Source of the DNA: Amoebophrya sp. A120
Taxonomy: Eukaryota > Protista > Dinoflagellata
Assembly (NCBI GenBank): GCA_905178155.1
Contig: CAJINV010000016.1
Coordinates: 897,386 to 961,385 of the forward strand
Reading direction: 5' to 3'
DNA length: 64,000 bases
The notes beneath the pieces are model-generated. The model saw only the letters and a program-made list of their open reading frames with translations, was not told the DNA's origin and searched no databases. Of this stretch, positions 252 through 62,591 are shown one piece after another (position 1 is the first letter of the stretch; every line of letters starts with the position of its first letter). The position numbers were made by a program, and so were the translations under genes.

Positions 252-3200
252 AAAATGATCTTCCTCGACCGGAGAATCGGGGTCGAAGTGTACCCGGTGG
301 ACGGGTGGACCGACCATTTACATGCGTATGCAGTGCAAAAGTATCGTACTCGTACTAATTGCAGTTTATGCATTACAAATCTAGTTCTTAAACGTAAATC
401 CGCATTACAAATTCAAGTCTGTAAGTAATGCTGAGCCAATTTGTATTGCGATTTATACTAGTACGATACAACTTTTGTACAGGATAATGCGCGACTGCAA
501 GCGATCATCCAAACCCGGCACGAGAGTCTGCTCGCAGCAGGTTACAACTGGGGGAACGTGGTGAAGGATGTTGAGCCACTGTACCCAACCGTGAGTTCCC
601 TGGACGAGTTGCAGACGGAGAAGTTACCCGCTTTGCCGGTCAGGAAGTCGAAGCCGGTGTATTGGCAACATCTTCAGGCAATGATGTTAGGTGGGACCAC
701 ATCTTCGCAAAGTACTATGGACAACGACTTGGTGAAATTCCACGACTTCAGTCTCCAATTGCAGACCATCAATGCGAGGTTTGGGATCAAGGACATCGCG
801 TTATCCGACGTGTTTCTTCTCGACAGCTCCGATGGGACGATCGTGAAAATTCTCGATCCCGTCAAGTGCCGGGAAATCTTCGCGCAGGGCTGTCTCAGTT
901 TGAAGGTCGGGGATCGCATTGAAGCATTTTGGAGGAGGCCACTGGATAGCAGCAGTGGTTCTAGTTTGAATCGAAGCGGATCCGCCTCTTTTTCCCGGAA
1001 TCATGGTCGCAGTACTACATCAGGAGCTGCAGGAGCCTCCGCGGCGAGAAGTACAACATCCTCTCCCTCTCACCAGCAAAACCAGTTCCACAAGCACCAA
1101 GCCGACGACTTGCAGCAGATCCAGCAGAGAGGCAGGGAACTTGCCTCGGACAACAACAGCAAAACCACTTGGATCGAGACCCATCCGGTGGAGCGGCGGG
1201 AATTCGTCCGAAGACCGGTTTTCAACTTGCAAAAAGTCCTGATCGTCCGCGACCGGTTCAAAGTTGCAAGGGACCTGACTTCCGTTTTCGACAAAATCAA
1301 AACCGAAAACTTCGACCAGCCGACGGTTGAGAAGATCAAGATGTTCATGCCCGGGTATGATGAGGTCTATCAGAAGGTCCACGGCTTTCCGGTGGGCACG
1401 CGCATCTGGAACAAGATCACCGGCTCCGTGGGCGAAATCGTCGCGGTGGAAAGTAGTTCCATCGGGAACGAACTCTTCGCAACAGTCCGGTTCTGCACTG
1501 ATGTCTGCCGGGAGGTGGAAGTGGCCCAGGCGGTCTTGCAGTTCCCATTGTGGTTTGCGAAACGGGGCTACGCAGTGAACTTTGAGGTCACGTTTGACGA
1601 GTTTGTGTATGTCCGGAATGCGTTTGAATTGGCCATCAGTGACATGGACGAAGAAGCGATTTCGGTGTTACAGGAACCGGTGCAAGAGTACAAGCAGCAG
1701 GAACAAATTGTACAAGCAGCGAATGGACGCGCGAACAATGGCAACCCGAATAATGGTGGTGTACCAGCTAAGAAATCTAAGCCCGCGACCCCGAAATCCA
1801 CTACCTCTGCTTCCAACATCCCTCAAACGGACAAGATCCAGGGCCGGATCCCCGTCGGCGCGGTGGGAATCGTGCGGAACGTCGAGCGGAAATTGGTCAT
1901 GGATAGTGACCACGACGATGGTACTCTGACGGTTGTGTCCGGGAGTACTAACAGTTACCAAATTCTCGACGTGGAATTTCGGTCCCCTCTGCTCGATTTC
2001 GCCTACAGCCGCAAGAAAATTTGGATCGGGGAAGACGCGGACGAGCTGATCAACCGGAACGAGTATAAAGTCGTGAAGAAAATCCGGTTGTTTGACAAGC
2101 ACGGGACCTTCGCTCTCCGCCCGGTGTCGCAAGCCACGCGGTACCAGATTCAGGTGGACGATCCGGTGTGGGGGGAATTAAGCCACTTCAACGCGGAAGC
2201 TGCTTCATCTGAGAGAGGAACTGGACCAGGAGCAGCAGTCGCTGGACATCCTTCTGCTCCACCTGGAGCAGGACCGCAAGGGCCGCACGCTGTGACCACA
2301 CAACCCCCTCTATCGGCTGATGCGATGATGTCAACACCTGTGGTCGTTCCGGCGGCCCGCGCCAAGGAGCCCGCGAAGCCTGCCAACGGGACGATTGCGT
2401 GGCGTCGGGTGCCGTTGGAGTACGTGAACGAAGCCCTGGTGCGTTCGCTGTTCGACGAGGAAACAAAACAAGACTTGATCGACGGTTGGGCGAATAACAG
2501 TCGACAGCTGAAAGAGGATTTGAAGATCATGCGGGCAGTGAGACAGCGACGATTGAGCAACACAGCAAGGACGAAAGCGGAGAACCGAGCGGATGCGGGG
2601 AATTTTTCAGCAGCTGCTGGTAATCGCGGTGGTGGAAATAATAGTAGAAACAACTACCGGGGAAGATCTGTCTCCATCGACCCGTCCTCTGCGACGAGTC
2701 CGAGCATGCATCCCTCATCCTCCGCCAGTCCGTCCCGGGGCACAGAGCCGCACTCCCCAGCGGAGAGTGCCACGTCGCACGGCAGTAGTACGGCGAAAAA
2801 GCGCCGCGACCCCTCTGGTACGAGGCAAAGAGCTGGTGGGCGTGGTGGACCTGAGGCAGCGTCGTCCTCTGGCGCGCGCAGCCATTCCATCGACTCCATG
2901 AGTCCCACAGCAAAAGCACGGACGGAAGCTTACGGAGTGGGCAGTTCTTCTGCCGCGATGAACAGTAAATCTGTTGCATCTCGACCGGTTTCCTCCCCGA
3001 AGCAGGGACCGAGTTCTACTACTCCGAAAGCGCCAGGGGCTGCTGGTGCAACATCATCTCCCGCCGGGTCAACAGCAGCTTCAAAAAGAGTGGCGTCACC
3101 CGCCCCGAAGGCTATGGCGAAACGCGCGGATCATGGGAGTGCTGGCGCGAGGGGGAGAAGCCGGAGTCGGTCGTTCAGCGTGGAGCCGGAGCGGGAGGGT

Positions 3201-5180
3201 GCAGAAGTTGTTATGCAGCCTCCATCGATGACCTCCGCAGCTACTTCGACAACCTACACTGGGACCCCGTTTCCACACACTGGAGGAACAAGTGCAGAAG
3301 TTCCATCTGAACAAGGGCCAAACCAAAGACTCTCGCACCCTACAAGAATTTCTTCCCCACGCGTGGTAGGACCTCATTCTTCAGGCCCTGGTGCCATCCC
3401 GGCCGGGTTCGCCCTCTCTCCCTTGTTGCAAAACGCCCTGGACACCTTTCCGAAGGAATCAATGGAACAAACGAAACCGCCGCATATCACATGTAAAAAT
3501 GTCTGGGTCTGGAAGAGTCATGCTGTTTCTGCATGACACGGAAGGTCTGGCATGGAAGCTCTAGCATCACAGGTTTCGAGAAGCAAGCTTCCGCAATGCC
3601 GAACCCGCATGACAAATCCCCCATTTTCTTTGTGACAGAAAGTGGGCAGCTTTTGCTACCCATGCATGAGAGATTTTTGTGTGTTCTCAAATGCGCATCA
3701 CAAGTTCGGATCCTTCCAGACCCAGACATTTTTGCACTTGATACCGCAGCCGAAGAAGCGACTGACGGCAAAAACGCCGGACCCGGAGTTCATTATGACC
3801 ATCGAGGACCACGGACCAATGGGAGGTGGGTCAACGGCGGTGGATCGTGCGTTGCGTGTTGACAAGTCGGAGGACGAGTTGCTGTTCCTCACCCCCGTGC
3901 CGGAGTCGTCGGAAGCTGGGAAGATGGCGATGCCGGCGACTGTGCCAGAAACGCTTACTTCATCTTCGGACACACCCCCGGCGCAACAGCGCGAGCACCG
4001 CATTGCGTCGAACGTGTTTCAGCAACAGGAACAATTTTCAGCCGGATCCACAGCTGCCTCCTCCAGCACCTGTCCGACGATCGCGGACCAAATCAGGTTC
4101 CAAAAAGCGAAGGAAAAAGCGGAGGAGTTGTTGCGCCGCGTGCCCGTGCAGCCAGTGATGTGGCAACAGGAGAACGCGAAATCGCCACTGGAAATGGTTC
4201 TCTACCCCGCCGAGGAAGATAGCGCTAATTATGCGCAAGATAGAACGAAGATGAAAACCAGCAAAGAGGCCCCCGAAGCAGACGGACAAGTAGAACTGGC
4301 TCGGGCCGCCGTGCCCTTTTCAGTAGAGGACATCGCAGAGGACCTGGACGAGCAGACGAGAACATCAATTGCCGGCGAAGCAGCTGCTGTGCCTAGAACA
4401 ATGACCTCTAGTACAACAACTACAGAGGAACGGACGAAGCGGCGTAGGTTTTCCTCCGGTGAGATTTCCACCGCGTCCACCTCTACCCGAGCGTCCACCT
4501 CCACCCGAGACCCTGCCGGCCGATCTCGATCCGAAGACCCCAATCGCGATGACCACTACGCGCGAAGCCGGTCGGACAGTGAGGATTACGACCGCCCGGC
4601 ATTGGAGTTGCAGCCGAGCAGTCTGCAGTTAGAAAAGGAACAGCGGGAGATCGACATGATTCTGCGACCGGAATTCGAGCGGGTAATGCACATCGAAATG
4701 CCGAAAGATCTTGATGCACCTGTTACCGCCGGAGGAGCAGCGTCGTCCTCGAGTGGGCAGGAAATGAGCACAACTGCAGGAGCACGAGCAGGAGCATCAA
4801 CAGGAAGCAGCAGTGCCAGTTCGTCTCTTGCTGCAAGAGGGAGTGGAACAACAGCAGCAGGTGCTGCTCAGGCGCTGACCTACGCGAGCCCCCCGTCGCC
4901 GAGTGTTGGAGGTAAAATGCTGTGATTGATTTTTGTTGTTGTATAAGCGGTTCGATTCTTTTTCTTTCTCATTGCAGCGAGCTACTTGTTATCGCAATTT
5001 CAAGAATTATATATTATTATTTCGCATTTCCACATCTCAGGTCGCCACCTCCAACCTCCGATGCTGTCGTCTGCTGTCGAAGAAGATTTCCAGCCTGTCT
5101 CCCTTCCGCAGTTAATCGAGCAGAGCTCCCAGGAGTGCGACTCGGTCCCCGCGCTATGCTGGATGAAGTCGCAGAATTGA
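252..5180 (+). CDS. Large low-complexity hypothetical protein, 5'-partial; exons ~252-326, 492-3484, 3749-4911, 5041-5180
   Basis: ORFs 180-428, 558-3536 and 3642-4925 join in frame after removing elements 327-486 and 3485-3743 with one repeat copy each (HLHA|RLQA, KPP|QPKK). A GT-AG intron at 4912-5040 gives a last exon. No recognisable family. Confidence 0.75.
327..486. mobile_element. Introner, family A (TIR tgcaaaagtatcgtact)
   Basis: TAT...ATA ends, inverted repeats, direct repeat ATGCG at 322-326 and 487-491. Confidence 0.9.
3485..3743. mobile_element. Introner, family B (TIR aaaatgtctgggtctggaa)
   Basis: TAT...ATA ends, inverted repeats, direct repeat CCGCA; removal joins two long ORFs in frame. 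Confidence 0.92.
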
Positions 5181-5904
5181 TGACCCGAAGGAAAAAGTGC
5201 ACGAAAATTATGCACGTAGGCGACGCAAGAAGAAGAACGGGATTGATTGATGCTGTTTGATTTTTTTACGTCTTCTGCTCATCCGTTTTCGTTTTCCACA
5301 AGGCGGAGTACACACTTGTAATGAGTAGCATTGTCACCCGTTACCAGAAAATGGATTAGAGCAGTAAAGCTATATTTGTTTTACTATCTGACTGGATTGA
5401 GTTTTTTTATGGAACTTTGAATAAATAATGATTGATGACTTGTTATAGTTCTGTTGGTATCGATTTCGACGTGTGCGGTCGTGCAGGAGAAATTGAAATT
5501 GTAGTATATGACAACAACATCTAATGAGCGATGGATTTGGAGACAATAGAAAAATTGCGCGTAAAAATTTGGACGTCCTTCCACTCCTGCGCGACCGCGA
5601 TTCTTGCTTTCACCACTTTTCATTGCAACTGGAAACAACTACCGCGTTGGTACATGTCGTAGGTTTTTGGAAGTTTTGACGATTTTGGGAATAAAGATCA
5701 GAAAAAGAAATATTGTAGCGGTCTTTTCCCGATCGTGGCAATCTGTGCGTTAGAGTTGTCCTAGCTTGCAACAACAAACGCGCTTGTCATAGATGAAGCT
5801 GAAGAAGTGTCAAAAAGGCATCAAGTCTGTGTTCAAATTTGCTTTCCGGCTTGACGCAGCTATTGGATTGCCTTGGTCCTCTGAGCGTAGTTCGTGCTGC
5901 ATTT

Positions 5905-7713: not shown

Positions 7714-8725
7714 ATGGCGACCTTGTCCCGGAACATCATGCTCTCCATATCAATACCAGGCCAACCAAATTATATCCTTCCGGAGCTCATCACGACTGCA
7801 TTGGCAGCAACATCCGGGCGGGCGGAGATGTTTCTGACGATCCCGACGCGGGGGATATGCGACCCCTTGCAGGACAACAGAAGGGGGGTCACATCCTGAT
7901 CTCAAGGTTTCGGGCACGACCCAAGAAGATGACCACAGAAGATGATTCCGGAGGACGGTTTTGTTGATGAAGCGCTCGTGCACATTATCCTATGTAAAAC
8001 CGTCCCCACCCAAAAGTTGTAATGCAAATCTGCATGCTGAAAATGTTTCTCATGCGGAGCCCCATGGTAGCCATTTTCAAATGCTATCTGGTAGTTTGTC
8101 ATGCTGGAATCACGATAAGGTAGCCAATTTGTCATGCCGCTGCACCAGCTAAACAGGATTACACTACGAACCCGATAAACTTGTCATGCTTGACAGCCAA
8201 AACTTGGGGATTTGTGTTGCAGATTTGACAGCTTGACTATACAGAGGGTGGGGACGTTTTTACTCAGGATACACATCGCTTGCGAGCAGAACATTTTCCC
8301 CACTACCTCGCCGAAAACCAAGAGGAAACGCTTCCTGAAGGTGCATGAAACCTTCATGCAAATCTATGAAGAGGCAGAAGGTACAGGGCCTGGAAGAAGT
8401 GCTTCTGCAGTGTCTTTTTGCTTGACAGTAGTTCGTTGCGTCTTCAAGTACAGAAGAAGTGCCAATGATGAATGTCAACGTTGTACATGTTGAGGACAAC
8501 TAATACAGTCGCTTTTGTCGTGTGCATGTTGAGTATACTAGTCTACTCAACATCTTGTCTCATGCTTTTCAAGCGCTCATCATCTAAATCTTTCTCACAA
8601 CTACAGGTGACAGCAGCCAAATCAACAGCGTGCGAGAGACGTACAGTGCGAGTTTATCGAAAGGGAAATCCGTCGGGGGCACACCGCTTCTTCACACCGA
8701 AAATTTATTGCTTCGCTATCATTAG
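7714..8725 (+). CDS. Hypothetical protein exons, possibly the 5' part of the 8811-14138 gene
   Basis: Removing element 7986-8271 gives MIPEDGFVDEALVH|IACEQNIFP. A GT-AG intron is plausible at 8381-8606. Links up- and downstream are unresolved. Confidence 0.4.
7986..8271. mobile_element. Introner, family D (TIR taaaa.cgtccccaccc)
   Basis: TAT...ATA ends, inverted repeats, direct repeat CACAT. Confidence 0.9.
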
Positions 8726-8810
8726 TATCTATGCAGAATCAGTAGCACTAGCTGTGCATGATGCCGCCTATGAGGGACTGCTGGGAGGTATGTTTTGACA
8801 CGCCAAAAGA

Positions 8811-11800
8811 ATGTACTGTGAGTCCAGAGGTGATAAGGAAGTAGCAGGAGGTAAATTAATAAATCGTATATTCTCGCGGTCGCGGTCGTGGTGCGGATGT
8901 AGTCGCTCGCATTTTTCCCTTGCAGACTCTGCACTGCAAAAGCGGTGGGAGCAGCTCCAGGTTATTACCAAGACGGTGCCGGACCAGTTTGTCTGTATTG
9001 GTACGATCCCAGTTGTGACATCGGCGACCACGGCCTCCGTCGCTGCGGCAGGCTCTTCCTCGACTTCTGCCTCTTCCCCGGTGGTCAGCAGCCCCATCAT
9101 TCGCGTCACCACGCCGCCGTTCTACAGCACGAGGAATAACAATTTGAACCCGCAAAATAGTTTTGGCACGACCTCTACCTCGACCTCCAGTCGGGCGCCG
9201 AGCGCAGCGGCTGCGTCCTCGTCCACCTCGCCCCGGAAAAATTCACCACCGGAACAAGGGGGCCGTGTGCGTTTGGGAGCAGGCTCACCAACTTTTCCAA
9301 ACGCGGCAGTTGCACCAGCAGGAGGACCAGCAGCCGCAAATATGACCGCGAAGGAGCAGTACAGCTCGACGGGAGCGGCCCGCGCCAGGGTGGAGCGCGA
9401 AGTGCACGCGGTGGGATGCAGTGGGGGAGGTGGGAGCAGTGGCAGCAGCAGCTCTTCAAGTTCTACTACTACAGCTGGTGGCAAGAAATACAACACCAAT
9501 AATTATCCACCGAACAAACCACCACCGCTCGTTGCCAACAAGGGTGCGGAACCCATGACGCAGGCGGAATTCCTGGACGCGAATGCGTACGATATAACTC
9601 CTGCTCTTGGTTCAGCTAGGTCCTCAAATCCCTCATCTTCGAAAGAGATAGTACACAGATGTACTAGCCCGTCATCCAGCACGACAACGAGAGGACTCGA
9701 CACATCATCATCATCGGCGGCAAGTTCTTCCAGCAGCAGCTCTAGCTCATCCAGTGCTCCTGCGGGCGAGGGAGAAAATATTACAGAGTCAAAAAAAGGA
9801 ACATCATCTTCTTCATCTTCACCCGGAGGTCGTCGGGAAGATGCGTCAACCATCCCAAGGACACCGCCCACGCCCCCGTTGCCTGAAACAAATATTAAAC
9901 TATCGCACCTTGCAAATAATAATATTAACCGAGATCATCGAGACAAGGCACTGCACCAGCAGTCGGCGCAACAGCTAGGGACCACCACGACGAGCAAGAT
10001 CTTGACCAGAAACAAAACGCGGCGACGCAGAAAATCTTCCGCGGCAAGAACACAGCTGCTGCAGCAAAACCCGGGAAGTCATCTGAGCTCCCTGAACAGT
10101 TCCGCAGTGCTGGAAAGCTCGGACGAGGACGGAGAGATAAAGCCGCTGGACATGTCCGAAGTGAAAGCTAGCATCGGAAGGGCCATGAGACACAAACAGG
10201 GCATAGTTGGGGGTTCCTACGGGACAAGCAGTTCGCCCGAGGACGGGGATGATGTACTGACTTTTGAACGTCTGTTTCATCCGTGTTGCAAAATAGAACG
10301 CACGTATTCGTATGAATGTAGGTTTTGGCTTTGATGTTGTAACTAATGGACTGCACGAGGGGAAATTGGCATGATGGAATTTGGATTTTTTGCATGTAAA
10401 AAAAAAACAAACTCTAAAAAACTCAGGGCGACGGGGGCGTCTACAACCACCCTCACGGTGGGGGCCACAGTTCCGTCGGGAGTGAGGACGCGGGATACAC
10501 GAGAGAGGCTGAATCTCCGGACCATTTCAACAGTAGCTCCTCGTCGTCCGCTTCCGGCTCAGAAAGTGTCGACCAAAGAAAACCCGTCTTGTTCCGCCCG
10601 CTGGCGCGAGGAGGGAACAAGTCGCCGGCTTCTGCAGCTGGTGGACCTCCACTTCCAGGGGGGATGGGCACAGCGAACAAACGGGTGAACAATAAACAGG
10701 TGAAGCCGTGTAGAAATGTTGTCCTCTCGACGTAACCTAAATTGTGTGGGTACTCATGAATGAGGTATGATCTTCAAATAAATGATATGCGTTCATCTAC
10801 TTGTGACGCGAGCGCGGAAAAGGAGATGCACATATCTTGCATGAAGAACAAGAAGTGCACAGTATGATTACACAGACCTTCTCGCCTACCCCTTCTCTCT
10901 CTGCACCCAAAACAGGCCGCTACGACGCTCCGCGAGGTTTCGGTCACGACCGTGAAGCCGCAGAAGAGAGCGTCTCTTTCCACCTCAGACGCAACAGACA
11001 CCAGCTACGGTGTCTACCCGGGGCCCTCCCCCGGCGTCGCGTCTTTCCGGACCGGTTGCAATTCGGGTCATTATCTCGGTGGTAAATCTTCCCAAGTGTC
11101 TGTGTCATCCTATGGCGTTCTCAAACGTTACATTCTCAAGTGTTACATGAATTTGTGATGCAAGAATGGCAAAAGTCAAAGCAGGGAGGTTGCACCTGTA
11201 GCATTACAAACTCCGCACAGATTTAGGCGCTGTTTAGCCTTTCCAGATTTGTCATGCGAAGTAGCTTCACCCTGTGGATGTTGATCCTCATTTTGCATGA
11301 CAAATTCATGTAACAGCTGAGAATGTAACAGTTGAGAACGCCATACATCCCGTCGCAGCCAGGCCAGCTCGAGCTTTGTGACTGTGGCATCGCCTGGTGG
11401 TGAGAATTCCTCCTCTCCGCTGCTGAGAACGGCAGGACCTGGTCTTGATGGGAGCAGAAGTAGCGGTGTACTTTCAGAAGTCACGAGGAGTGAAAATGAT
11501 AACGGTGGGACCACAACGACAAAGAACGACGCCGCACTTCTAAGGCCCTCTGGTACTTCTAGTGCCTGCTCGTCAAAGCCGCCGAGACTAACTGGCCGCG
11601 AGTCGATCGAGAGCATGAGCTCTTGCCTCTCGAGGGACGAAGAGATGGACGGGAACGACGAAGACGGGGTGGAGCGGGCTAGTGTAGTAGACATCACCGG
11701 AAGTGCTAAAGCTAATGCAGCGGCGGACGATCATGTTGAACTCGACGCCGACCACTCTGGGGTCACTGGATGTAAAAATACACCAACTACCTCAGGCCCT

Positions 11801-14138
11801 GGCGGTAATACAACTACATCGTTGCAGGTGCAGCAGAGCCCAGCCGCCGGTAGTTCAATATCATCTTCGGCTAGTACTAGAAGTGCACAACTTCCAGGTC
11901 GCCCGCCCACGCTGCCAACGAAGAAGAACTCCTCAGCGGCAACAAAATCCGCTCCCTCTGCAAAACTCAGGACGTCAGAGTCTGCAACTTCAGGCACGCA
12001 AGATGATGAACATCAAGTCTCTCCTATTTTATCCGGAGGAGGTTGCACTAGTAGTGCGAGCAATTCTACCTGTTCCGTTCCGTCCCCTACAGGAGCCACT
12101 GCTTCGAAGCAGCACCAGCAGCAGTTTCGAAAACAAAACGTCCCGACTTTCACTGCACCTGCAGCCGGCGCACGACCCGCCGCGAGCTTGACGAGCTCGC
12201 TGCTTTCTCATGCCGCAAGCAGCAGTGCAAGTATGAGCGCCGGGACCACAGCCGCTGGAAATAAAATAGATTTGGTAAATACGCAGCCGGTAATGTTTCC
12301 AGGAACAACAGCCGGTAATAGTAAATTATCCGGTGCAACGTCTACAGCATCGAGGGGTGCAGCTAGTGGTCACAGCTCCTCCGGGTCGCAGAGCTATTCT
12401 TCCGGTAGGTATGCAAAAAAAACCAAATAAAGTTTCGTACTCGTTGTATGTATTCTTGCAGTACAACAGCATGACAGATCCGGTTATAATTCTTGCCTAG
12501 TTCAGCATTTTTACACGTTCTGTTTTTCTTTGTGGAAAAAGTTGCTGCTAATGCCGCTATTTCTACTCAATAGTACGAAAGCGAATACTTTTGCAATGCA
12601 TGATAGGGAAGACGTGGTGATGCGCGGGAACAACAGCAATCACGGAGCCGGAGGTGGCGGTGTAAACTCTTCCTTTTCCTCTAGGTTTTCATCTGATGGT
12701 GCTCCTCGGGGAGGTGGAACAAAAAGCAACACCAGCAAAGCTTCTTCTTCGTTCAAGAACCGACGGGCGAATTTGCTCGATTCGTTAAACACAAGTGATG
12801 AGGATGATGACGATGATAGTCACCCTGCTTTCTCGAGTTCCAATGAGGGCGGGGGCAACTCAAGCACAACGTCGGGCGCAGCGATGGTCGTTGGTGGCTC
12901 CTCTGGTGCGACGTCCTCGACGGCCCACCAACAACATCCTTTCGCGTGGGTCAAGACAGCAGGTTTGACAGGTGGCTGCAACCATTTGGCTGGAGCTGTG
13001 CCGAGCTCCAAACCGGGCGGGACGAGCAAGAGTCACCAAGTTCATCCTGGAACTAGTGGAAGCTTGAGCAGCAGTGGGCGGGCTGTGAACTACAGCAATT
13101 TTAATCACGCAGTAATGTCGACCGGGACCACGCCGGCCGACAGACTGCACGCGATGCAGAGCCGGCAGAGCCAGACGCACGCCGTGAAGGTGATTTTGGA
13201 GAAGAAAAGCTATCAGGAACAGCTGCTCCGATTAAAGCACAACGTGGACAAGGTTTCGAACGAAGACGACTGGAACGACTTAACCGAGGTAGAGCGGGAC
13301 TTCTCGACGAAGCTCGGCTACCAGTTTCTAAGCGTCACCGGGGGAGCTGCTAGTGCTACAACCGCAGGAGCAGGAGCTACTGCAGCACCCTCCGGAGGAG
13401 CCCCCGCCGGTCCTCAAAGTGGTCAGCAGGGCAACAAGAATCCGATAGGCAAAGCCGTTTTCCACTTGCTCAGTGTGCTGATAACGCAGAGTATCCACAG
13501 TAAAGTTCCCGTACACGTACAAATGCAGTCTCTGCATGACAAAACTTGCCTTCAATCCTAGTCCAGCATGACAAGTTGGACTCTGCAAGGTTGCGAAATT
13601 TGTCATGCATTTTGTACATGTGCAGGAAATTTACATTGCATACAGAGTGACATGTACGCTCGGAATGTGGACCAGGACTGGAATCCGGACCGCTTCAACG
13701 TTATGGTAGTGTCAGGATGGAAATCGACAAAGTTGAAATGATTTGTAATGCATAAAATGCATGACCAGGCGTACGTGTGTTGCAGAGCAGGCAAGTGAGC
13801 CCGATTGTAATCCTGTTTGGGGTTAGAGCTCGAGCTGCTAAAGTAGCATGAGAAAACTAGTCTTCTTTGCCTAAACAGCATGACAAACTGGATTTAGACG
13901 GAGCCGAGAGCTGTCATGCACCGCTTAGAAATTGGGCTTCGAACTGGCATCGATTTCATGCATTACAAGTTATTTGTGTAGTGGTTTCGGTCAGTTTAGC
14001 ATTACAAGTTATTTCAACTTTGGCGATTTCAATCCTGACGCTTCCATAAACGTGCACCGGGCATGCATGAAAGCGCGAATCACGTACTATGACGAGATTA
14101 TTCGCAACTACTTAAATGGAGGTAGTGCAGCTGGGTGA
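8811..14138 (+). CDS. Ser/Thr/Gly-rich hypothetical protein with an ordered C-terminal region; multi-exon, start uncertain
   Basis: ORFs 8811-10334, 11378-12430, 12530-13561 and 13932-14138 are joined by GT-AG introns 10254-10426, 10700-10915, 12409-12606 and by elements 11111-11345, 13492-13642, 13702-14048. Ends ...ITQSDMYARNVDQDWNPDRFNVHRACMKARITYYDEIIRNYLNGGSAAG*. Confidence 0.7.
11111..11345. mobile_element. Introner, family G
   Basis: Perfect 14-bp TIR tatggcgttctcaa / ttgagaacgccata, extending imperfectly; direct repeat CATCC. Confidence 0.92.
12410..12602. mobile_element. Decayed family-A introner inside GT-AG intron 12409-12606
   Basis: Residual tatgca...tttcgtactcgt and tagtacga...atacttttgcaatgcatg; repeat GTAGG/ATAGG. 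Confidence 0.7.
13492..13642. mobile_element. Introner, family H
   Basis: tatccacagtaaagttcccgtacacgtacaaa pairs with tttgtacatgtgcaggaaatttacattgcata; direct repeat CAGAG. Confidence 0.88.
13702..14048. mobile_element. Introner, family I
   Basis: ~50-bp imperfect TIR (tatggtagtgtcaggatggaaatcgacaaagttgaaat...); direct repeat AACGT. Confidence 0.9.
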
Positions 14139-15643: not shown

Positions 15644-15645
<2 letters not shown>

Positions 15646-15695: not shown

Positions 15696-15696
<1 letters not shown>

Positions 15697-18544: not shown

Positions 18545-18806
18545 TATCAAATGCAAAAATGTCTGGGTCAGGAAGATTGCGAGATTTGTCATGCACATTT
18601 TGCATGACTCCTGATGTCTGTGATGCATGCCCTAGGATCAGAAATTTTTTGAGGGCTTTCTGATGCGTATCCTGAATGACAAATGCCCTCTCCGTGTAGC
18701 ACAAAATCGAATCCTCTAGCTAGTCATGCAACACAGATTCTCTTAGAATCCGAAGACAGCATCAGAAGTTGCATCCTTCCAGACCCAGACATTTTTACAA
18801 TCCATA
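18545..18806. mobile_element. Family-B element at an apparently non-coding site
   Basis: TAT...ATA ends, family-B TIRs, direct repeat TTTTA; flanks give no convincing protein. Confidence 0.88.
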
Positions 18807-47000: not shown

Positions 47001-48286
47001 TGGCTGCGGTGCCTTTCTGCAATACAGAGCTGATTTGTTTACCCAAATTCAGCATCAGAAATTTCGTTTTGATATGGGGAGGGGGGATTTTTCCTTGCCA
47101 TAGTCACAAGAAAACCAGCGAAGATCTTCCTCTTCCTGAAGATGATCCTGAGCAGAACGATCATACAAACTGCGACAACGTGACGAGGCCAGAAAGCGAC
47201 CTCCAACCCCTCGGCTTTATACGGCTCGTTCTTTCCCTCAACACGCCGCAAAACCCGTTTTCCACCACCGACGTTAATGTGCTAAAACTGATATGGGAGT
47301 CGTGCACAACTCCCCGTCTTCGCCCCAGTTGCATGCACAGTACCAAGAAGTTCGCCCCTTGTATCTTCGCATGACGGGTTGTTCTTCTTGCAGCCCCAGC
47401 CGCACTGCGATTCTCTGTGGATACTTAATTTCATTATTGTCATGCAAAATTCGCATTCATTCTATCTTGCCGACGTGGTTTCTATATATCGCTGTTCTAA
47501 ACTTCACGACTAGAACATGAGGGGAAGAACGAGCAGTTCTGTGCCTTTTCATAACTGAACCACGAAATAGTGAACACGTACCTTCCTCCGGTGCTGGAAA
47601 TCTCCCCGCAGGAGCGCCAGTACGTGGAGCAGGTGAAGAGGTTCGGCCAGGCTGCGCAGAACTCCGGCGGCAGCACTTTGTCCGACTTCTTTCTAAAGTG
47701 CAAAGCCTGCAGTCGGGCCTTCACGAGCAAGCACCGCGCGATTTTGAAGGCGGTGCTGGAGAAGATGAAGCACGCGAACCCTCTGGGCTTCTTGTACAAC
47801 GAATTGCTGTCGGAAATGCAAAAGAACAAGGGGGTCCAACAGAGCGCGCTAGACCGGATCTTGCGGGAGTTGCAGGAGCAGCAGCTGATCATCCAGTCGA
47901 ACCCGGAGCAAACCGGGCAGCGGGTGAAGTTGAATGTATGCATTGCAAATATATATGTCCTCTGAGTCTGGAAAGTAGTGGGAACTAAGTTGTAGTGCTA
48001 GGTTGGCATCCTGGGAAATCTGTATTGCATAACCAACATTTGTCATGCAAAAACGCAGTTTGATGTTCTCATGCGGACTGCCTAGGAGAGAGCGCTCCGG
48101 AAAGTTGTCATGCTGGGCTCCTCCTGCATTTGGAAGCGTCATGCACATTGTAGCATCACAAGTTTCCAGACATCCAGGGATAATATTTGCACCTGATAGA
48201 ACTGCGGAACGGAGTACTTGAAGCAGAAATACGAGGAGATGCTGGAACTTTTCTCGGCCGGAGTAGACGGGGACGACGGTGACTAG
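44033..48286 (+). CDS. ORC2: Origin recognition complex subunit 2-like (divergent)
   Basis: ORC2-like motifs in the expected order: NLCVSGLGSKYAMLRRF, ILLVVHCYE, IRLVLSLN, VNTYLPPVLE, C-terminal LDRILRELQEQQLI; 5 introners plus GT-AG introns 44637-44816 and 46277-46457. Confidence 0.72.
44347..44555. mobile_element. Introner, family F (inverted relative to 19729-19938)
   Basis: TAT...ATA ends; direct repeat CGAGA. Confidence 0.93.
45937..46197. mobile_element. Introner, family B
   Basis: TAT...ATA ends; direct repeat GAAAG. Confidence 0.92.
46779..47102. mobile_element. Introner, family C
   Basis: TAT...ATA ends; direct repeat GTCAC; interior similar to 23797-24119 and 61130-61456. Confidence 0.92.
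47292..47553. mobile_element. Introner, family E (diverged)
   Basis: tatgggagtcgtgcacaactcccc ... catgaggggaag...gtgccttttcata; direct repeat ACTGA. Confidence 0.82.
47937..48198. mobile_element. Introner, family B (diverged)
   Basis: TAT...ATA ends; repeat GAATG/GAACT. Confidence 0.85.
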
Positions 48287-49451: not shown

Positions 49452-50743
49452 ATGTCTCGCAACCCGGAGCGCACCTGGGTCAGGCGGTCGGAGTCCGCAC
49501 CACGTGCGTTGACGAAGCCACCAGGCGCCACGATGGATGCCGGCATGGGGCAGATAGTGTGGCAGGCCCCGTGTCTCGTGAACTTCCAACCGTGCCAGGG
49601 TGGAGACAGACCGAAGATAGGTACTTATTGAAATGCAGACATTGACATCAACATACACAGAATGCGCAATTTTGGTTTTGCACAATTGCATGCTGTTGCC
49701 ATTTAGTACTTACTGCCTCGCACTGAATGAAGTAGTCCTCATGCCGGTTCACCACGGATCGTCATGTGTGCCTGTGCAACGCTCGCTCCTCCGCCCTCGT
49801 ATCACCAGTTTTGGGATCTTGTTGAATAGGTGAAGTGATCATACAAATCAATGCCAGCAACATCACCAAGTACTTCATGTTAAGTTATAATCAGGTCGTG
49901 ATCTGTTCGGCTCCGTGACGAATCCATACCAGTTTGACAAGACTTTTGTCAACCGAGTGGACAATTTTAAGAAGCGAATTGCGGAAAAAATGGAAATGGA
50001 CGTCGAGACCGAAGCCCCAAGCAGCAGCAGGAGTTCAGGTAGTTACAGAGTTTTCATGCGGGATGTGCAAGCAGCACAGATTTGTCATGCACTTTGTGTG
50101 TCGTAAATGCTAATGCAAAAACCAAAAAGTGTGCATTGTAATACGATGAAATTTCCCACTAAAATCAGGTTCCTCCTCCGTCCCCGAGCGTCAGTACTCC
50201 GTCCGGAGATCACAAAGCTTCGAGTACACCAACCGAACACCCTTTACCGTGCATGCCCAGTCAAGTCCTAACCTGGTGATCAATATCGCCAGAAACAAAC
50301 CGGGATACATGGGGTATAAAATTCAGTATAGGATCATTTCTATTTCTTTCAGTTTCACGCTATTGCTCATGTGAATTCACGCGGCAAGCAGGGAACAGTG
50401 AGTACTAATTACATTTGTAGTTTGCTGGAACTTGAGATAAATGCAGTAGAAGGGGTGCTGGCGTGTCCATGATGCAGCTCTCTCTCCCGTTTTTTTCATG
50501 GTTATCTTTTGCAATCAATAGAATTCGAATTCCAACCTTTACTTATTTATCAGGTATATTCCCGGTGAGAAAGCAGAAAACGTTCACGGTCGCATCTGGG
50601 CGAAGATGGTGTCCGATTGCGCACACCTTCGCGGCCCAGCAAAATCCCAGCCGTGGGACGGAGCGCGGGGTATGCTGCCCCTGCCAACGCCCTACCCGGA
50701 ACTGCGGCACCACCCGACGCACTGGCTCGGGAACGGGTATTAG
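49452..50743 (+). CDS. Probable ciliary microtubule-inner protein, FAM166/CIMIP2-like; exons 49452-49620, 49895-50038, 50169-50313, 50554-50743
   Basis: Three GT-AG introns give one frame containing KPGYMGYIPGEKAENVHG, the PGYxGYxP...ENxxG motif typical of the FAM166 family; largely missed by the ORF track. Confidence 0.7.
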
Positions 50744-52189: not shown

Positions 52190-53097
52190 ATGCCGAAGGA
52201 GGTGAATATGGTAAACGAGATGAAGCTATGCTGTGCAAAAGTATCGTACTAGTATGAATTGCATTACAAACTGGCTCAGCATTACAAAGGTAATTTGTAA
52301 TGCGGATTTCCCTTGATTATTAGATTTGTAATGCATGACTGCGATTAGTACGAGTGCGATACTTTTGCAGTGCATAGAAGCTCTGGAAAGACAGGGTAGA
52401 CGGTGAGCTCAACTCCGCAGCCGAGTGGGAAGCGAACTGGGGCTTTTTGAAGGCAGAGAAGAAAGTGGAAGCGCCACCAGAAGGTATGATCATCATGATG
52501 TTGATAAGAAGTAGAACCGAAACCGACCTTGTCACGGCCCTGTCTTGGCACCACGACAGCAACTATGAACAGAAGCAAATGTATACCCAAACACTACTAT
52601 CAGGTAAATTTAGTGTCGAAAGACCACCCGCCCCCGCTTCCCCAAAGCCATCGGTAACGGGCGAAGATGCGGTGGAGCTGACCGCGAAACTGAGGTATAC
52701 CATCAATCGCGGAAAAACGCCGAAGGAAATCCAGGCCAGACCATTGACAACATCGCAGGTATGGACTTATTCTACAAACGACCCCCTCTGAATTTCTATG
52801 GTACGGAAACGCATGTTGTTCCCTTCCGTTTTCGTTCATGTTATGGTCAAGCAGGTCATTCTATTTCTATCCCGAAAGGAATTTCCCGGGCACGACATGT
52901 GTATTTGACGTTCATTCGCATCACCTCTTGATCCTGAAGCAAAAAATGATAAAGAAAGTAGGACGCAAATCTGTATCTGCAATGAAAAAAATCGCACCAT
53001 TGCACAAAATCAGGAATTGGGCTGGAGGCCGCCGATCGAACTGTTTGGGCGGGGCGACAATGGTGTCAAGCGGGACCCCGGAATTTGGCCGCAGTAG
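52190..53097 (+). CDS. Small probable ciliary microtubule-inner protein (C20orf85/CIMIP1-like); exons 52190-52226, 52382-52483, 52604-52758, 53014-53097
   Basis: Reconstructed MPKEVNMVNEMKLWKDRVDGELNSAAEWEANWGFLK...PKEIQARPLTTSQELGWR; the WK.R..E...W..NWGFL and P.TT.Q..GW motifs match that family from memory. Confidence 0.68.
52227..52376. mobile_element. Introner, family A
   Basis: TAT...ATA ends; direct repeat GAAGC. Confidence 0.92.
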
Positions 53098-53941: not shown

Positions 53942-55146
53942 GTGAATCAACCTTGTTTACTTCTGCTTCTCAATACAATTACTTTCGTCTGTAGTAGGGG
54001 AGAGACGCCGTTCCCCGCCAGGGCGGGAGATCTTGTGGTAGTTACCATCGAGGACCGCTGCTGTCCTTGCAGTCGCTACTGTTTTTCCTTCCGCTCGTTT
54101 AAATCTGAAGTATTCGTATCTAAAATGTATGTAATCAGCAGTTTTACCCTCAAGCCTGACTGCATGATGGGCGGTGAACAACTTTGCCCACTAGGAGCGC
54201 TTCGTCGACGGCGTAGGCGATCGAACAACCTTTCCGCGATTTTTTTCCTCTTCGCAAGAAGCGGGCCTGGTTTTTGTAACTTTTTGTGGCTGCAACAAGC
54301 TCGGAGCACCACCACGACAGCATCCAGTTCATCTTCATCGTCTGAAGTTGTACAACCGGCTACTCCGCCGCCGGCGAAGAACTTATTTTTCGAACAGCAA
54401 GAAGTAGAGCTCGAGCACGACGCGCAGCCGGACTTTGTCTCGTCTTCGTTCCTGCGAGAAGAGGACGCCGGCGCAGATGAGCTGCGACAGGTGCCACAAA
54501 AAGCAGTCCAGAAAACAAGCACGACCGCTGCAGGATATGAAACTACTGCTCCCCAGGCAATGGTAGATCACAACGACCTCCCGGAAAGTAGAACGGACAC
54601 TTTTACATTTGATATGAAGGGCGGCGAGCAGGCGGGCATGAAATTCCAGGACAGTGTCAAGATCGCCTCGAACCTGGCCAATGTCGGCGACGCCAAGATA
54701 TCCTGAGTAAAAACGTCCCCACCCCAGAGTCAAGTTGGGATTTTGGCAAGACAAATCGAGCATCTTTGGGACTCACGCATGACAAGTTTGGCTGCGCAGT
54801 GTAGTCGTGCCTAGCTAGTTCAAACGCATCACAGATCCAGTCTGTCATCCTGATTAGCGCATGACAGATTCCCAAACGCCACTAGGTAATTCCTCTCCTG
54901 GAGAGCCGCATGACACACATTCTGAGCCTGCAGATCCGCATGACAGCTATGGGGTGGGGATGTTTTTACATATGATACAAGACCGTGCTGATTCACTCCT
55001 GGTCGACGACGCATTCGCAATTGACGGAAGAGCAGCGGATCTCGGCGGGCGTCAAGCCGGAGTCGATTCGTGTTTCGGTCGGGTTCGAAGATTTGGAAGA
55101 CCTGAAGCAAGACTTCAAGCAGGCCCTGCTCGCGAGTCAGAAGTAA
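53942..55146 (+). CDS. C-terminal ~90 aa of an O-acetylhomoserine sulfhydrylase (MetY/Met17 family) fused to an unrelated N-terminal region; possibly a pseudogene
   Basis: FTFDMKGGEQAGMKFQDSVKIASNLANVGDAK|TVLIHSWSTTHSQLTEEQRISAGVKPESIRVSVGFEDLEDLKQDFKQAL; homology begins ~54601 and no PLP-binding domain is seen upstream. Confidence 0.7.
54699..54977. mobile_element. Introner, family D
   Basis: TAT...ATA ends; direct repeat CAAGA. Confidence 0.92.
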
Positions 55147-57010: not shown

Positions 57011-60000
57011 ATGCAAGAGCAGGACCATCACCAGCAGCAGCGGCGCGACGTGCTGCGCCTTCGCATCCGGCGGTCTCTTTGCCCCCCACCGCAGATGACT
57101 ATTTCTAGTAGTGGTTCATCTGTACTAGCTGCACATCGACCTGGTGCAATAAAGCAGGGTCAACAACATCATGATGCCGCAACTACCTCTGCACCAGATG
57201 ATCCGGAACTCAACTATTACAAGCACTGCGGCACGGTGATTCCTCGGGACACACTGCACGAAGCGTATGTGTCCTACGACAGCATAAGGACACGACCAGA
57301 GGAGCGTCAGTCGTCGTCCGACGACGGCGGCGGTGCCGGTAGTGGTGTTGATAGCACCACAAGCGGCTCGTCAACATCTCCTCTACTTCGGCTGAAGGAC
57401 AACAGTCTCTGGCTTGCGTCAGCACGATCAGGAACAAATTCTTCCCCCAGCTCCTCGTCATCCTCCTCCACCTCGAAAAGAAAACAAAACTCGTTGTCGT
57501 TCTACTTCCGCCTGCGGATTGTGTCCAGCAAGTCAATCCCGAAAAACGAACTGTGGCTCTCCTCCCACTTGGCGCATAATTTCGGGTCGGATATTTGTGG
57601 CTCCTTCATCGCGGAGTTGCGCCTAGTACCTTCGTGGTCTACTTCGCTGGGTGAAGATAGTGTTGTCGGTGTAGAAGGAGCTCCTCCTGCTGCAGCTAAA
57701 CCGTCGGGCCGAGGCGGAACAGGATTAAAATCCGCTTCACAAAGTAGACAAAGTGCGCATGTTGAACGAAGTAGAGCACCACCTCCAGAACAAGTATTGC
57801 AATGCCTCTGCATCGAGGACGGTAGCATGAACATCCTCTCTACTTCCCCTATGCAACAACACCTCGCGCCGCGGCTCTGCTCCAAAGCTCACCTCGAGCT
57901 GCTCGGTGGGACAGCCGCTGGGCTGTTGACGAGGAATTTGCCAGAAGACGTCATGGCGAACGTCGCGGACTTATCAGAATGAAAAATCCCCCCTCCCCAT
58001 ATCAAAATGAAGTCTCTGATGCTGGATTTGCGTACACAAATCAGATTTGTGTTGCTGGCGAGGACTCCAGACCCACGCTAAGCCTGAGTAGACAGGTTTT
58101 GGCCTAGGCGCTTTGCATGACAGACGTCTCCGCTGTGGCTAAAACAACATGACAAACCGCCTGTGGAATGCGGCGGAGCTTGTGGAGTTGCCTTCATGCA
58201 ACACAGAGGCGATTTGTGGTCACAAATCAGCAACGCAAATTTTCGAAAACGCGCCTTGTCAATATGGGGAGGGAGGATTTTTCCTTTTGATAGGACTCCC
58301 TGCGGATTCTTTGCGGCACGGTGCCCCGGCTTATGACAGTGCACAACTCCCCCTCCCCCTCATTTTGTCATGCAGAATCTCAAATCCAGTCGCTCTCGCT
58401 GCCTTGTGGCACTGTTTGCATGACAAGTTCTGGTAGCCCAAATAGCACTACACTCCAGTGTAAATTTGTCATGCAAAACCCGCACTCTTGCTGATGCTTG
58501 TGTTGCCGTTCATGCTAATATACAAATGAGGGGGAGGGGGAGATGTGCAATCTCATACGGCTCGTCGCGGTCAACGAGGTTTTCACCCTGCCGTTGGCTT
58601 TGTGGCCCGCGGGATTTGAGTTCTTGGCCCGGATGGAGCGGAACGGGCAGGTCAGGTTTGAGGCGAGCAGCGTCGCGCCGCAGCAGCCAGCTGGGATAGC
58701 ATTGAACAACTCAGGAGCTATGAGTTCTTACAACGCAACCTCATCGGGCGGCGCACTAGGGGGAACGGAACCAGGGGTCGTGAAGAATCCGTTGACTCTT
58801 CCAGCAGCATCCTCCGCCGCGCACCGGTTTTTGGTTGGACGGCACGTCAAAACCGCAGGAACCGATGCTTATTCCCAACAAGGCGGCACTGAAACAACCG
58901 AAGCTTCATTTGGCGCTGCCACAAGAGCACCAGGGGGGACATCTTCACGAGCAGCACAGGGAAACGACCCGGCCGGGTCCAGCATACTAGAAGCGGGCGC
59001 GGCTGCTGCTAGTAGAAGTGCTGCAAGTAGGACACATCATCTTCCGCCAAAGCCGAAAGCCAAACTGCTGCCTTGGATGTCTCGCCAGAAACCGAGTCCA
59101 GATATCAGCTACCGACAGGCGATTGAGCAGCAGTTTTTGAACGTCACAGACTCGGTGTTCGATCTGTTTATGCCCTTTGGATTTCCCAGTGTTAATATGG
59201 GAACATCAAATGGGGCATCGAAGAACACAGGTGAACAAACATCAACCGGAACTACAACGAGAAACACAGCGACCGAATCCGTGGTCGCAAAGATCGCGAA
59301 GACGGTGACGAAAAAGTGCAACCCGCACCCGCTCTGGGACTACAGCTTTCTGCCAACGTTCACTTTTCGGGTAAAGAAGTTAGAGGTGGCGGGGATGGAA
59401 ATCGGAGCGGACGACGAGATGAAGAACAAAGAGGATTTGCAAACAAATTATGGGATGAAAGCAGAACGAAGAAATGTCGGCGGCTACATTTCCTTCCCGG
59501 AAACAGCGGTGGAGCTGGTGTCGAAGGAAGAGGATTCACCACCAGGTGAGGACACGAGTGGTCCTGGCGGTGGAGGTCGCGCACCTCCAAGTTATAGAAG
59601 CTCCGTATTGATGCTGATGGACCATTACATCGAGGATAGCGAGGACGAGGAAAATTCGCTCGATAATTATCCGCAGCTGCGCGCCAGGGGTCAGAATACA
59701 GAAAATAATGACGGTCGTGCAGATGGTGCGCAACAACTTGACTACTACAAGACAAAAGCCCGCCCTCTGCAGCACCAGCAGACCACTGCTACGCCCTTTT
59801 CCCTGTTTCACTTCGCGAACCACTTACCGGCACCGTGCTTGCCGTGTTTGCGAGAAAATGCAGGGATTCTGAGGAAAGTTATGCACGATATACTATCTAC
59901 ACCGTTTGATGCCGCGAGCGCGGCCACTAGGACCACAACTACAACTAGCACAGTACCCCCCGTGCTTCTCTTCGCCGGCCCGCGCAGCACGGGGAAGCGG

Positions 60001-62591
60001 GGGTTACCCGCGATGCTTTGCCAGATGCTCGGGTTTGAATACAAAGAGATCAACTGCGTCGCGGATCCGGAGTTTACGACCATAGAAGAGTCTTTGCCGA
60101 AGCTGGTTCGCGGAATGTCCATGACGACCGCGGGTGAAGTAGATGGTTCCTCCACCTCCTCCGTTCGCAAGCGTCGTGCTCCTGGCAAGAAACACAACCA
60201 CCACGACCTCCTGCTCCCCACCCTCCTGCACCTGCGTCGGTGCGATTCGCTGTTCAAGGGGAATCCTATGCAAGAAAACCGGGTGGTGTTGCAGCAAAAG
60301 CAAGCGGCGACGGTCAAGCTGGTAGTTGAGAAACAGTTGAGAACTACGTCTAGGAGGGCAAGAATACGTCGAGGAGGACCACGAGCGAGTAGTAGTAGTC
60401 ATCTTCCTTTCATCCTCGTTTTTTCTTGTGAGGAAATGGATTCTGTGGGAAACGTGTTTCTGGAGGAAGTCGTTCAGAAGGTGCTGACCTTCAAATTGCC
60501 CGACGAGGAATCGAGGACAGTGGCGTTGGAGCGGTTCCTGGGTCGTGCGAGGGGAGCGAGCAGTGGCAGCAGTGCTCCTTCTGCCAGTAGTACGGCTCTT
60601 CAAAAGCCGCTTGTTGCAGGAGATGGACAACTCCTGTCGCAAGGACGAGCAGGAGAGGAGCCATCACAGTCTTTACTATCGCAGTTGCCCTCGTCAACAA
60701 GAACTGCAGACCAGACTTTTCAATTCGATTCGAAACCCTTCCAACCCACCGAGTTCCTGCACAAATACTTAGCCTCCAAAACCACCGGATTCTCTTTCAC
60801 CGAGCTGGAACTCCTTGCTTTGCGCTGCAAGGAAAAATGCGAAAAACAAGATCATGCGGATGAAATGCGGGCAGGAACCAATTCTCCCGGCGAGGTTGGT
60901 GCAACAGGAGGAAATAAAATGGAAAGTGTAAAAAACAAGCAGAAAGAACCTCTGCCGGGCCGAAATTATTCTACCAGCGTAAAAACATTATCAGCCAGCG
61001 CAGCGGCAGCTTCCTTTCTTCTTCTCCCCGAAGACGTGGCGGATTCTCTGATTCAGGAAATTAAGCAAGACTGCATGTCCGCGAAAAAGGATCTGACGAA
61101 GCAGGTCAAACTGAGCAAAAAAGACATTTTATCAAAACGAAAAATCCCCCCTCCCCATATCGAAGCGGTATGATTCCGAAAATTTGTGTTGCTGATTTGA
61201 GACCACAAATCGCGCCTGTCTTGCAAGAAGACAAGCGCAGAGGCTGCCGCGCCATTATGGAAGCGATTTGGCATGCTGTTGGGCCTAGGGGGCGCCCGTT
61301 TGTAATGCTAAGCAACGAACTAGACCCAAACGCCCCTGCCTATGCTGAGGATCTGGCTGCGATGCCTTACTGCAAGACAGCGCGCATTTGCGTACGGAAA
61401 TCCCGCATCACAGATTTCCGTTTTGATATGGGGAGGGGGGATGTTTCATTTTGATAGATTTCCTGGGACGACATTGGCGGCATGGAGACCGCGAAAAAAG
61501 AAATTTTGGATCTGATCGAACTACCACTGTCTACGGATCCGAAAACGAAAAAACTTTTTTCTAGTGGAATAAACAAGCAACAACAACAGCAAACGAAACT
61601 CCGGTCCGGCGTCCTGCTTTTCGGCCCGCCGGGGACGGGAAAAACCTTGCTCGCCCGAACGGTGGCCGCGGAGTGCGAAGTTTCGTTTCTCTCTGTCAAG
61701 GGGCCGGAGCTGCTCTCCATGTACATCGGCGAATCGGAAGCGAACGTGCGCAAAGTGTTTCAGTCGGCCAAGGACTGTCTGCCCTCCGTGCTGTTCTTCG
61801 ACGAGCTAGATAGTTTGGCCCCGGCGCGGGGCAAAGGGTCCGATTCCGGCGGCGTCATGGACCGGATTGTGTCGCAATTGTTGACCGAATTGGACCAAGT
61901 GCCGAGCAAAGTCTTCGTCCTGGGCGCGACCAATCGGCCGGACTTGCTGGATTCGTCGCTCTTGCGGCCCGGAAGACTGGACCGGACGATCTACCTCGGG
62001 ATCAGCCAGGACAAGCTGCCGATTTTGAAGGCCGCCACGAGGAAGCTGGCAATCGGGAGAGAGGTGGACTTGGCAAAGATCGCCGCGCAACTGCCGGCGG
62101 CCTTTACGGGCGCGGACACGGCAAACCTGGCCCAGGAGGCGTACCAGCGGGCTTTGCAAGAACGAACGGACTTTATCAAGTTCGAGCTGTGCGAGGGCCA
62201 GGACGTAAAGGTGACGACGTTTTTGCTCGAAGTCGAAAAGATTGCAGAGGAAATTAACGAAAGCGCAACAGCGCAAAATGAAATCAGCTCCTCGGCAGAC
62301 ACACAATCAGGTTTTTCGAAAATCGCGGACGGAGTTTGGGAGAAAATGGCCACCGAGTTAGGTGTCGCTGTAGAAACTACATCAGGCGTAGAAGAGGACG
62401 ACACTGGAGCAGGTGGTGAAGTCGTGCCCAGGAGCAGCAGCAGGCGTCAGATGTTTCTAGCGAAGTCACTGCTAGAAATCCCAGTGAAGGAGAAACATTT
62501 CTTACAAGCACTGGAAGTGTGCCACCCATCTGTGACAAAAAAGGAACTTGAGAAATACGAACTGTTGGCAAAAGAGTACAGAAATGCATAA
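57011..62591 (+). CDS. PEX6: Peroxisomal AAA ATPase PEX6; exons 57011-57971, 58298-58331, 58563-61129, 61462-62591
   Basis: D2 domain ISWDDIGG...SGVLLFGPPGTGKTLLA...SVKGPELLSMYIGESEANVR...FFDELDSLAPARGKGSDSGGVMDRIVSQLLTELD; degenerate D1 Walker A (GPRSTGKR). Confidence 0.92.
57972..58292. mobile_element. Introner, family C (opposite orientation to 61130-61456)
   Basis: TAT...ATA ends; direct repeat GGACT. Confidence 0.92.
58332..58557. mobile_element. Introner, family E
   Basis: TAT...ATA ends; direct repeat CGGCT; interior similar to 20424-20646. Confidence 0.92.
61130..61456. mobile_element. Introner, family C
   Basis: TAT...ATA ends; repeat CATTT/GATTT; removal restores ISWDDIGG. Confidence 0.92.

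Follow-up and report, generated by a model that had tools for sequence, protein, structure and literature searches.

A conserved two-part site with recurrent spacing in divergent introner families of Amoebophrya sp. A120

Introners with divergent terminal inverted repeats (TIRs) carry copies of one short motif in a 64,000-nt stretch of the Amoebophrya sp. A120 genome (GCA_905178155.1, contig CAJINV010000016.1, positions 897,386 to 961,385; hereafter the window). An earlier note had pointed to eight copies of this motif, all of which are present, and had proposed that a common trans-acting factor binds it. The proposal is supported by the enrichment of the motif, by the excess conservation of its core and by the fact that the families cannot be aligned end to end. 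The reading we favour, and consider rather probable, is that the motif is the core of a two-part site of about 22 bp, present mostly 2 to 8 times per element, and that this is the putative double-stranded DNA site of one integrase-type transposase, or of its partner, mobilising all families. To judge from the literature text searched, the shared two-part site and its spacing rule are new, while the elements and the principle of repeated sites were already known.

The window elements were defined blind to the motif, by a 5-bp duplication around TAT...ATA with matching ends, resulting in 36 curated elements (three of them by eye) that make up 13.4% of the window. Extra copies were obtained by scanning metagenome contigs with a B-type TIR pattern, which gave at least 143 loci (765 kb including overlaps) with at least 401 further elements; the same caller made 3 calls on reversed control sequence. 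Window elements and those from the public contigs form a set of 436. Since the query over-represents group B, cross-family tests were group-weighted or used one element per group. The site profile was trained on window elements, with 401 of the 436 elements held out. The loci contain 207 more unpaired TIR-like ends outside the called elements, which suggests that some elements were missed by the caller.

On both strands of the window, GCATNACAAA occurs 51 times, compared with a mean of 0.86 (maximum 4) in 100 dinucleotide shuffles. Fifty of these strict sites are within the 36 curated elements (5.83 per kb inside vs 0.018 outside), and 200 shuffles of the element sequences produced a mean of only 0.27, with a maximum of 3. 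The strict 10-mer is found in 27 of the 36 elements and the 8-mer GCATNACA in 35, and the top 8-mer within elements, GCATGACA, is present in all nine families delimited in the manner of the earlier note. Strict sites in the metagenome loci reach 5.37 per kb inside called elements and 0.47 outside, and at least two profile sites are found in 433 of the 436 elements. The enrichment over composition-matched background, on which the idea of a common factor depends, thus holds.

The motif had been described as sub-terminal and as present in both orientations, and each description is true in part. A site is found no more than 66 bp from both ends in 91% of the 436 elements, but the zone from 26 to 60 bp has 41% of the sites when 38% would be expected from a uniform distribution, and the whole interior is tiled. 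GCAWNACA occurs in both orientations in 27 of the 36 curated elements, whereas single-orientation arrays are found in group D (21/27) and group K (7/7). In longer elements of 834 and 972 bp the sites are concentrated near the ends. The elements and sites of the window, together with the copies of group K from the metagenome loci (L numbers), are listed below (TSD, target site duplication).

1..251, introner, group G; left TAT cut by the window start; 4 profile sites
327..486, introner, group A; TSD ATGCG; sites 370 and 402 paired at 32 bp
3485..3743, introner, group B; TSD CCGCA; 5 profile sites including 3607
7986..8271, introner, group D; TSD CACAT; 6 sites in one orientation, pairs of 30, 33 and 31 bp
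11111..11345, introner, group G; TSD CATCC; 4 sites including 11295
13492..13642, introner H (kin of A); TSD CAGAG; 3 sites including 13599
13702..14048, introner, group I; TSD AACGT; 8 profile sites
18545..18806, introner, group B; TSD TTTTA
19729..19938, introner, group F, inside a hexapeptide-repeat gene; RNA-type contigs skip the element and 5 nt (215)
20052..20335, introner, group D; 6 sites, all reverse in the mRNA; exact removal, 289 nt
20424..20646, introner, group E; TSD AGTAT; exact removal, 228 nt
22505..22836, decayed element; begins with TAT, TIR and TSD both eroded, 2 weak sites without a 32-bp pair
23286..23593, introner, group C; TSD TGCCA; removed
23611..23759, introner, group A; TSD GGGCC; removed
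23797..24119, introner, group C; TSD GAAAG; exact removal, 328 nt
28833..28987, introner, group A; TSD GGTGC
29432..29648, introner, group F; TSD GAGCA
29716..29866, introner, group A; TSD ATATT
35154..35321, decayed short B-type element; TSD CGGGA; the sole curated element without the 8-mer
35362..35511, introner, group A; TSD ACAAT
35547..35702, introner, group A; TSD CGAGT
35755..36016, introner, group B; TSD CAGCA
36698..36949, introner, group B; TSD ACACT
37024..37289, introner, group B; TSD TTATC
37395..37613, introner, group F; TSD TGCGG
38920..39171, introner, group B; TSD matching at 4/5
39518..39774, introner, group B; TSD TGTTC; interrupts an RRM_2 domain
44347..44555, introner, group F; TSD CGAGA; close copy of 19729 in opposite orientation
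45937..46197, introner, group B; TSD GAAAG
46779..47102, introner, group C; TSD GTCAC
47292..47553, diverged E-like element; TSD ACTGA
47937..48198, diverged B-like element; TSD matching at 3/5
50081..50090, minus strand, the only strict site outside curated elements; lies in a GT..AG-type intron that also has two weaker sites
52227..52376, introner, group A; TSD GAAGC; 4 strict sites
54699..54977, introner, group D; TSD CAAGA; orientation opposite to 7986 and 20052
57972..58292, introner, group C; TSD GGACT
58332..58557, introner, group E; TSD CGGCT
61130..61456, introner, group C, upstream of an AAA ATPase domain; variant site at 61183
L014:5259-5367, L018:11805-11913, L063:17188-17296 and L137:380-488, 109-bp elements of group K

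Two GT..AG-type introns, 12404-12604 and 50035-50168, have one strong site each, and the former also contains A-type TIR remnants. These are likely old introners turned ordinary.

The consensus of the site is W-T-G-C, seven looser bases and GCA(T/A)NAC A(A/G)(A/G)T. The W-T-G-C half-site recurs across groups at -10 to -7, 42 of the 64 consensus sites having T at -9, and is better conserved than the spacer (mismatch of 0.12 at -9 and -7 vs about 0.2), which is why we regard the site as a two-part one. In 14 family alignments, identity to the consensus of the family amounts to 0.89 for the core and 0.68 for its position 5, with 0.76 for spacers and 0.91 for TIRs. Within families, core positions 1-4, 6 and 8 have mismatch rates of 0.03-0.07, position 5 has 0.22 and spacers have about 0.2. 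In total, the core has 1,438 mismatches (of 13,271), while 3,093 would be expected from trinucleotide-matched spacer. The core is under constraint, being about two times better conserved than the neighboring bases except at position 5, and this excess is found in families that are not alignable end to end. Context-dependent mutation (CpG) was rejected as its source, and the trinucleotide-matched control holds. Motif columns have fewer gaps than the spacer, or as many, in most families.

Same-direction pairs of sites 30-33 bp apart, or about three helical turns, are present in 369 of the 436 elements and in all nine terminal-repeat groups (AH 58/74, B 173/188, C 39/40, D 27/27, E 11/20, F 35/46, I 12/13, K 5/8 and, the weakest, G 3/12; other elements 6/8). 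With one element per group, this class accounts for 28% of same-direction distances vs 4% under random placement, a value reached in 0 of 2000 placements. An origin of the pairs by tandem duplication of 32 bp was rejected, since their spacers are only 27% identical. Same-direction distances are phased at 10.4 bp (P=0.004; without the 29-34 class the signal is weak, P=0.033), and divergent pairs show borderline phasing (P about 0.05). The outermost outward sites are located 40-41, 49-52 or 60-63 bp from the element end, in steps of roughly one helical turn. The terminus itself is best matched as a degenerate outward copy of the site in which position 10 is G (first among 24 offsets; P=0.005 by column permutation), and under this register the outermost sites would be 31, 41 and 52 bp away from it; an inward copy was rejected, as it fits only A and B and the outward register is better. 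The elements therefore have what defines subterminal repeats, multiple conserved sites with a spacing constraint near both ends. The 109-bp elements of group K are the minimal form, in which two TIRs enclose a single same-direction pair of sites at 32 bp. Three longer TIR-bounded elements with perfect 5-bp TSDs (L017:505-1608, L023:632-1465 and L067:11017-11988) have motif-poor interiors and are possibly captured DNA, while a 5.5-kb TIR pair in L033 was rejected as a long element because it joins two different TIR types, likely by chance.

The ends are more uniform than the interiors. TAT is found at 71 of 71 window element ends, as it was a search criterion, and A at positions 11-13 in 58-64 of the 71; the TAT ends, an A-run at 11-14 and the 5-bp duplication are common to all groups. 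The TSD is perfect in 30 of 35 window elements and shows no base preference among 348 strand-called insertions. With TIRs, a TSD of fixed length, many copies and no coding capacity, the elements have the features of TIR DNA transposons that are non-autonomous, similar to miniature inverted-repeat transposable elements. TIR positions 4-10 change at 1.1-1.3 times the spacer rate and positions 11-25 are conserved; some variants at positions 4-10 recur across families. An absence of constraint on TIRs in close pairs was rejected, since the apparent effect came from these hypervariable positions, and TSD mismatch was uninformative as an age clock (0.491 vs 0.487).

The families had been called otherwise unrelated, which is overstated. 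Their interiors are unalignable once the motif is masked (cross-family scores of 22.6 vs a null of 20.9, and 70.5 within families). However, besides the common ends and duplication, H is kin of A, and the pairs C-I, E-G and D-E are weakly related (z of 6-7, most motif-masked consensus pairs having z<3). The order and orientation of the sites vary between families, while the spacing recurs. From these comparisons, the families are best seen as deeply diverged members of one kind.

Evidence of removal comes from contigs of four runs of one sample, whose RNA nature was guessed by software. All six curated elements in 19350-24300 are skipped in RNA-type contigs. For F, D, E and C copies exactly the element plus 5 nt is absent, and the C and A copies at 23286 and 23611, with only 17 bp between them (23594-23610), are skipped around a 7-nt remnant. 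The decayed element at 22505..22836 is still removed exactly as a non-canonical intron of 337 nt (22504-22840; one case). After in silico removal of the element and one duplication, the frame is open at 34 of 35 junctions (no control set). The interrupted genes encode hexapeptide-repeat, RRM_2, AAA and Cys/Met PLP proteins, and 6 of 8 exon pieces match Pfam at E<0.01. GT-AG is possible at only 15 of the 348 insertions. At 19729 and 20052, where the duplication copies differ, the base of the upstream copy is retained. The joints 19724-19943, 20047-20340 and 22504-22841 permit a 5' cut one base before TAT and a 3' cut four bases past ATA; with such cuts the intron would begin with N-T-A-T, the upstream duplication copy would be exonic and the downstream copy free to decay.

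The motif is symmetric with respect to the mRNA. In the 348 strand-called elements, 912 copies are forward and 946 reverse, and the one-way elements were inserted in both mRNA orientations (7 vs 12 for D, 2 vs 3 for K). Symmetric opposite pairs show no covariation (916 vs 943 expected), outer sites have similar mismatch at the 3' and 5' ends (0.090 and 0.083, p=0.43), and a putative branch A is not favored at the 3' end (0.88 vs 0.92). Sense and antisense folding are equal (p=0.36), and the 8-mer occurs in only 3 of 19 ordinary introns, which were roughly bounded. Insertions with a possible GT-AG and those without are alike in site density (2.14 and 2.20 sites per 100 bp; n=15 and 333). The motif is thus neither strand-specific, nor favored at the 3' end, nor common to ordinary introns, as a branch point should be, and a role in splicing is disfavored. 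Since strand bias, covariation and 3' bias are absent and one-way arrays occur in either insertion orientation, double-stranded DNA is likely the form in which the site is read. Among the binders proposed earlier, a transposase, or more generally an inferred DNA-binding protein, fits the B-DNA-like spacing, the strand symmetry and the one-orientation families, whereas a single-stranded RNA-binding protein finds no support in the strand, folding, covariation and 3'-end tests.

What follows on published work refers to the accessible text of the sources. The elements resemble the A120 introners of Farhat et al. 2021 (PMC7789003) in the inverted repeats starting with TAT, the seven looser bases, the A-run and the non-canonical splice sites. 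Their boundary direct repeats are short (3-5 nt; 5 bp in the Fig. S19 legend), in agreement with the 5-bp TSD found here, and the element lengths are like those tabulated for A120 introners in PMC12130899 (149, 252-260, 278, 305 and 320 bp). The description in PMC7789003 covers ends and hairpins only, with no internal motif or spacing rule. The motif strings were absent from the supplement text of Farhat et al. 2021 and from the text of most PNAS supplementary files, and no report of the motif was found in the text of the literature searched (preprint text for Roy et al. 2023).

The sequence of the ends points to the class of integrase-related DNA transposons. They share TA..TA termini with IS3EU/GingerRoot, whose TSD is usually 6 bp and not 5 bp, and fit the TNT..AYA termini of IS481EU, whose TSD is of about 4, 15 or 25 bp, with one copy of 5 bp; TDD-4/5 have the same 5-bp TSD, and Ginger1/Ginger2 have TGTNR termini instead of TAT (PMC6839031, PMC10045372, PMC2836005). 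TAT..ATA termini together with a 5-bp TSD characterise none of these families. Because some defining feature is lacking or uncheckable in each case, we left the elements outside GingerRoot, IS481EU and Ginger/TDD. A further parallel is the A120 family 38 (Gozashti et al. 2025, PMC12130899), a TIR element from the same genome type with integrase-like homology and '5-bp TSD, TA/TA Termini', although at about 810 bp with open reading frame (ORF) fragments it is unlike the elements here. Through the integrase-like homology, family 38 is a candidate relative of the mobiliser.

Subterminal site arrays were absent from the searched text of two papers on integrase-related DNA transposons. Multiple internal sites and cooperative binding are known from other systems, which serve as the working model for our elements. 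Ac/Ds has repeated hexamer transposase sites, and Ds1 shares with Ac little but the TIRs and a few repeats (PMC3260210); Emigrant/Lemi1 has repeated internal transposase sites (PMC1636448); and TnsB of Tn7 needs multiple weak 22-bp sites at set spacing (PMC9308760). Unlike these, the elements here comprise nine divergent TIR groups in which one putative site tiles the whole element in varied order and orientation, and they are also exact two-way introns.

Under the favored reading of one integrase-type mobiliser, several protomers would load on one helix face and contribute to building the complex that pairs the ends, in the manner of Tn7 or Ac. Lineages losing sites or spacing would stop spreading, and the spacers would diverge into apparent families while sites and spacing were kept. 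Splicing would rely on the orientation-symmetric ends, not on the motif. In that case, the single conserved site and the spacing rule would unite A120-type families under one mobiliser. The site would be a defined bait for pull-down and a signature for finding the autonomous element, the 109-bp minimal element could be used for tests, and mutation of the site would let roles in transposition and splicing be separated.

Several observations weigh against this reading. No transposase or autonomous element was found in the about 0.8 Mb covered, where L013, L017, L023 and L067 gave no convincing ORF on inspection without a Pfam scan, and the accessible text of PMC7789003 reports no transposase in A120 and argues against general mobilisation of introners by one. 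For the same-direction distances, a period of about 16 bp gives a fit equal to that of 10.4 bp, convergent pairs are unphased (P=0.23), and the end-ladder test (P=5e-5) is post hoc, from 11 hand-picked modal distances; the terminal likeness to the site may be vestigial, given the hypervariable TIR positions 4-10. Sites are missing near the right end of the 1,104-bp element, and the groups are not fully independent. Constraint also persists on terminal branches, where the motif changes at 0.49 of the spacer rate (confidence interval 0.44-0.54) vs 0.35 on internal ones, and in close pairs of 3-7% divergence (0.52). The conserved part of the TIR has a similar value on terminal branches (0.53), and sparse sampling could produce both; a sample this sparse cannot separate selection for jumping from selection after insertion.

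The strongest alternative, although an unlikely one, is that a host protein binding double-stranded DNA or chromatin reads the site, either as an accessory or bending factor in transposition or as a DNA mark recruiting non-canonical splicing during transcription. All the DNA-level evidence fits it equally well, and the persistent constraint on terminal branches agrees with it. A120 reportedly has neither a transposase nor U1 small nuclear RNA, its introners being split into 1,954 families (PMC7789003). As GT-AG is possible at so few insertions and no base is preferred in the TSD, it must be the element that specifies where splicing occurs. On the other hand, removal is still exact for the decayed element, which has two weak sites and lacks a pair, site density is equal whether or not GT-AG is possible, no relaxation of constraint was seen in non-coding insertions (only 9 changes), and the strict site is nearly absent outside elements within the window.

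It is less probable that the motif has its role in RNA, whether as a branch point usable both ways, an RNA-binding-protein site or hairpins between opposite copies. The branch-point consensus resembles U-N-A-Y, and the central T-N-A of the motif reads U-N-A-Y on both strands. Sites lie just inside both terminal repeats in most elements, the predicted pairing of motif bases is 0.77 vs 0.60 for spacer, and convergent pairs 24 bp apart could form hairpins, their variable bases matching slightly too often (352 vs 333); TIR mismatches are slightly more often G-U than A-C (321 vs 279, p=0.09). The symmetry, covariation, 3'-end, ordinary-intron and folding results given above speak against it, and 4-8 copies with a spacing of 31-32 bp would be left unexplained. 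Somewhat more doubtful still is the idea that one DNA-binding protein both mobilises tens of thousands of introners and flags them on chromatin for a U1-less spliceosome, in either orientation and without GT-AG; if true, introns would be defined on DNA rather than RNA.

The least credible explanation is that the motif has no function today and reflects shared ancestry or a by-product of mutation: the common ends and TSD length, the residual similarity between some groups and the recurring end geometries, which could derive from the two ends of one ancestor, agree with it, but it is largely refuted by the excess conservation of a core with one free position inside, by site order and orientation that differ between families while spacing recurs, and by motif columns with fewer or equal gaps. 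Ancestry likely explains the origin of the motif, not its maintenance.

Viral contigs had no match to the B-type TIR pattern, and their 16 matches to a paired-motif pattern, none within a TAT/ATA element with TSD, were taken as chance. Elsewhere in the window, a transcript contig joins 24222 to 26630 over a 2.4-kb GT..AG span (24223-26629), which contains a GC-rich segment between 45-bp direct repeats (about 24274-24318 and 26498-26542) and has a DNA depth of about 160 vs about 30 in the flanks. A second GC-rich segment (5900-7300, 71%) shows no BLAST similarity to the first one or to the loci. At a short repeat (32348-32385) several contigs break and depth rises in both DNA and RNA-type runs.

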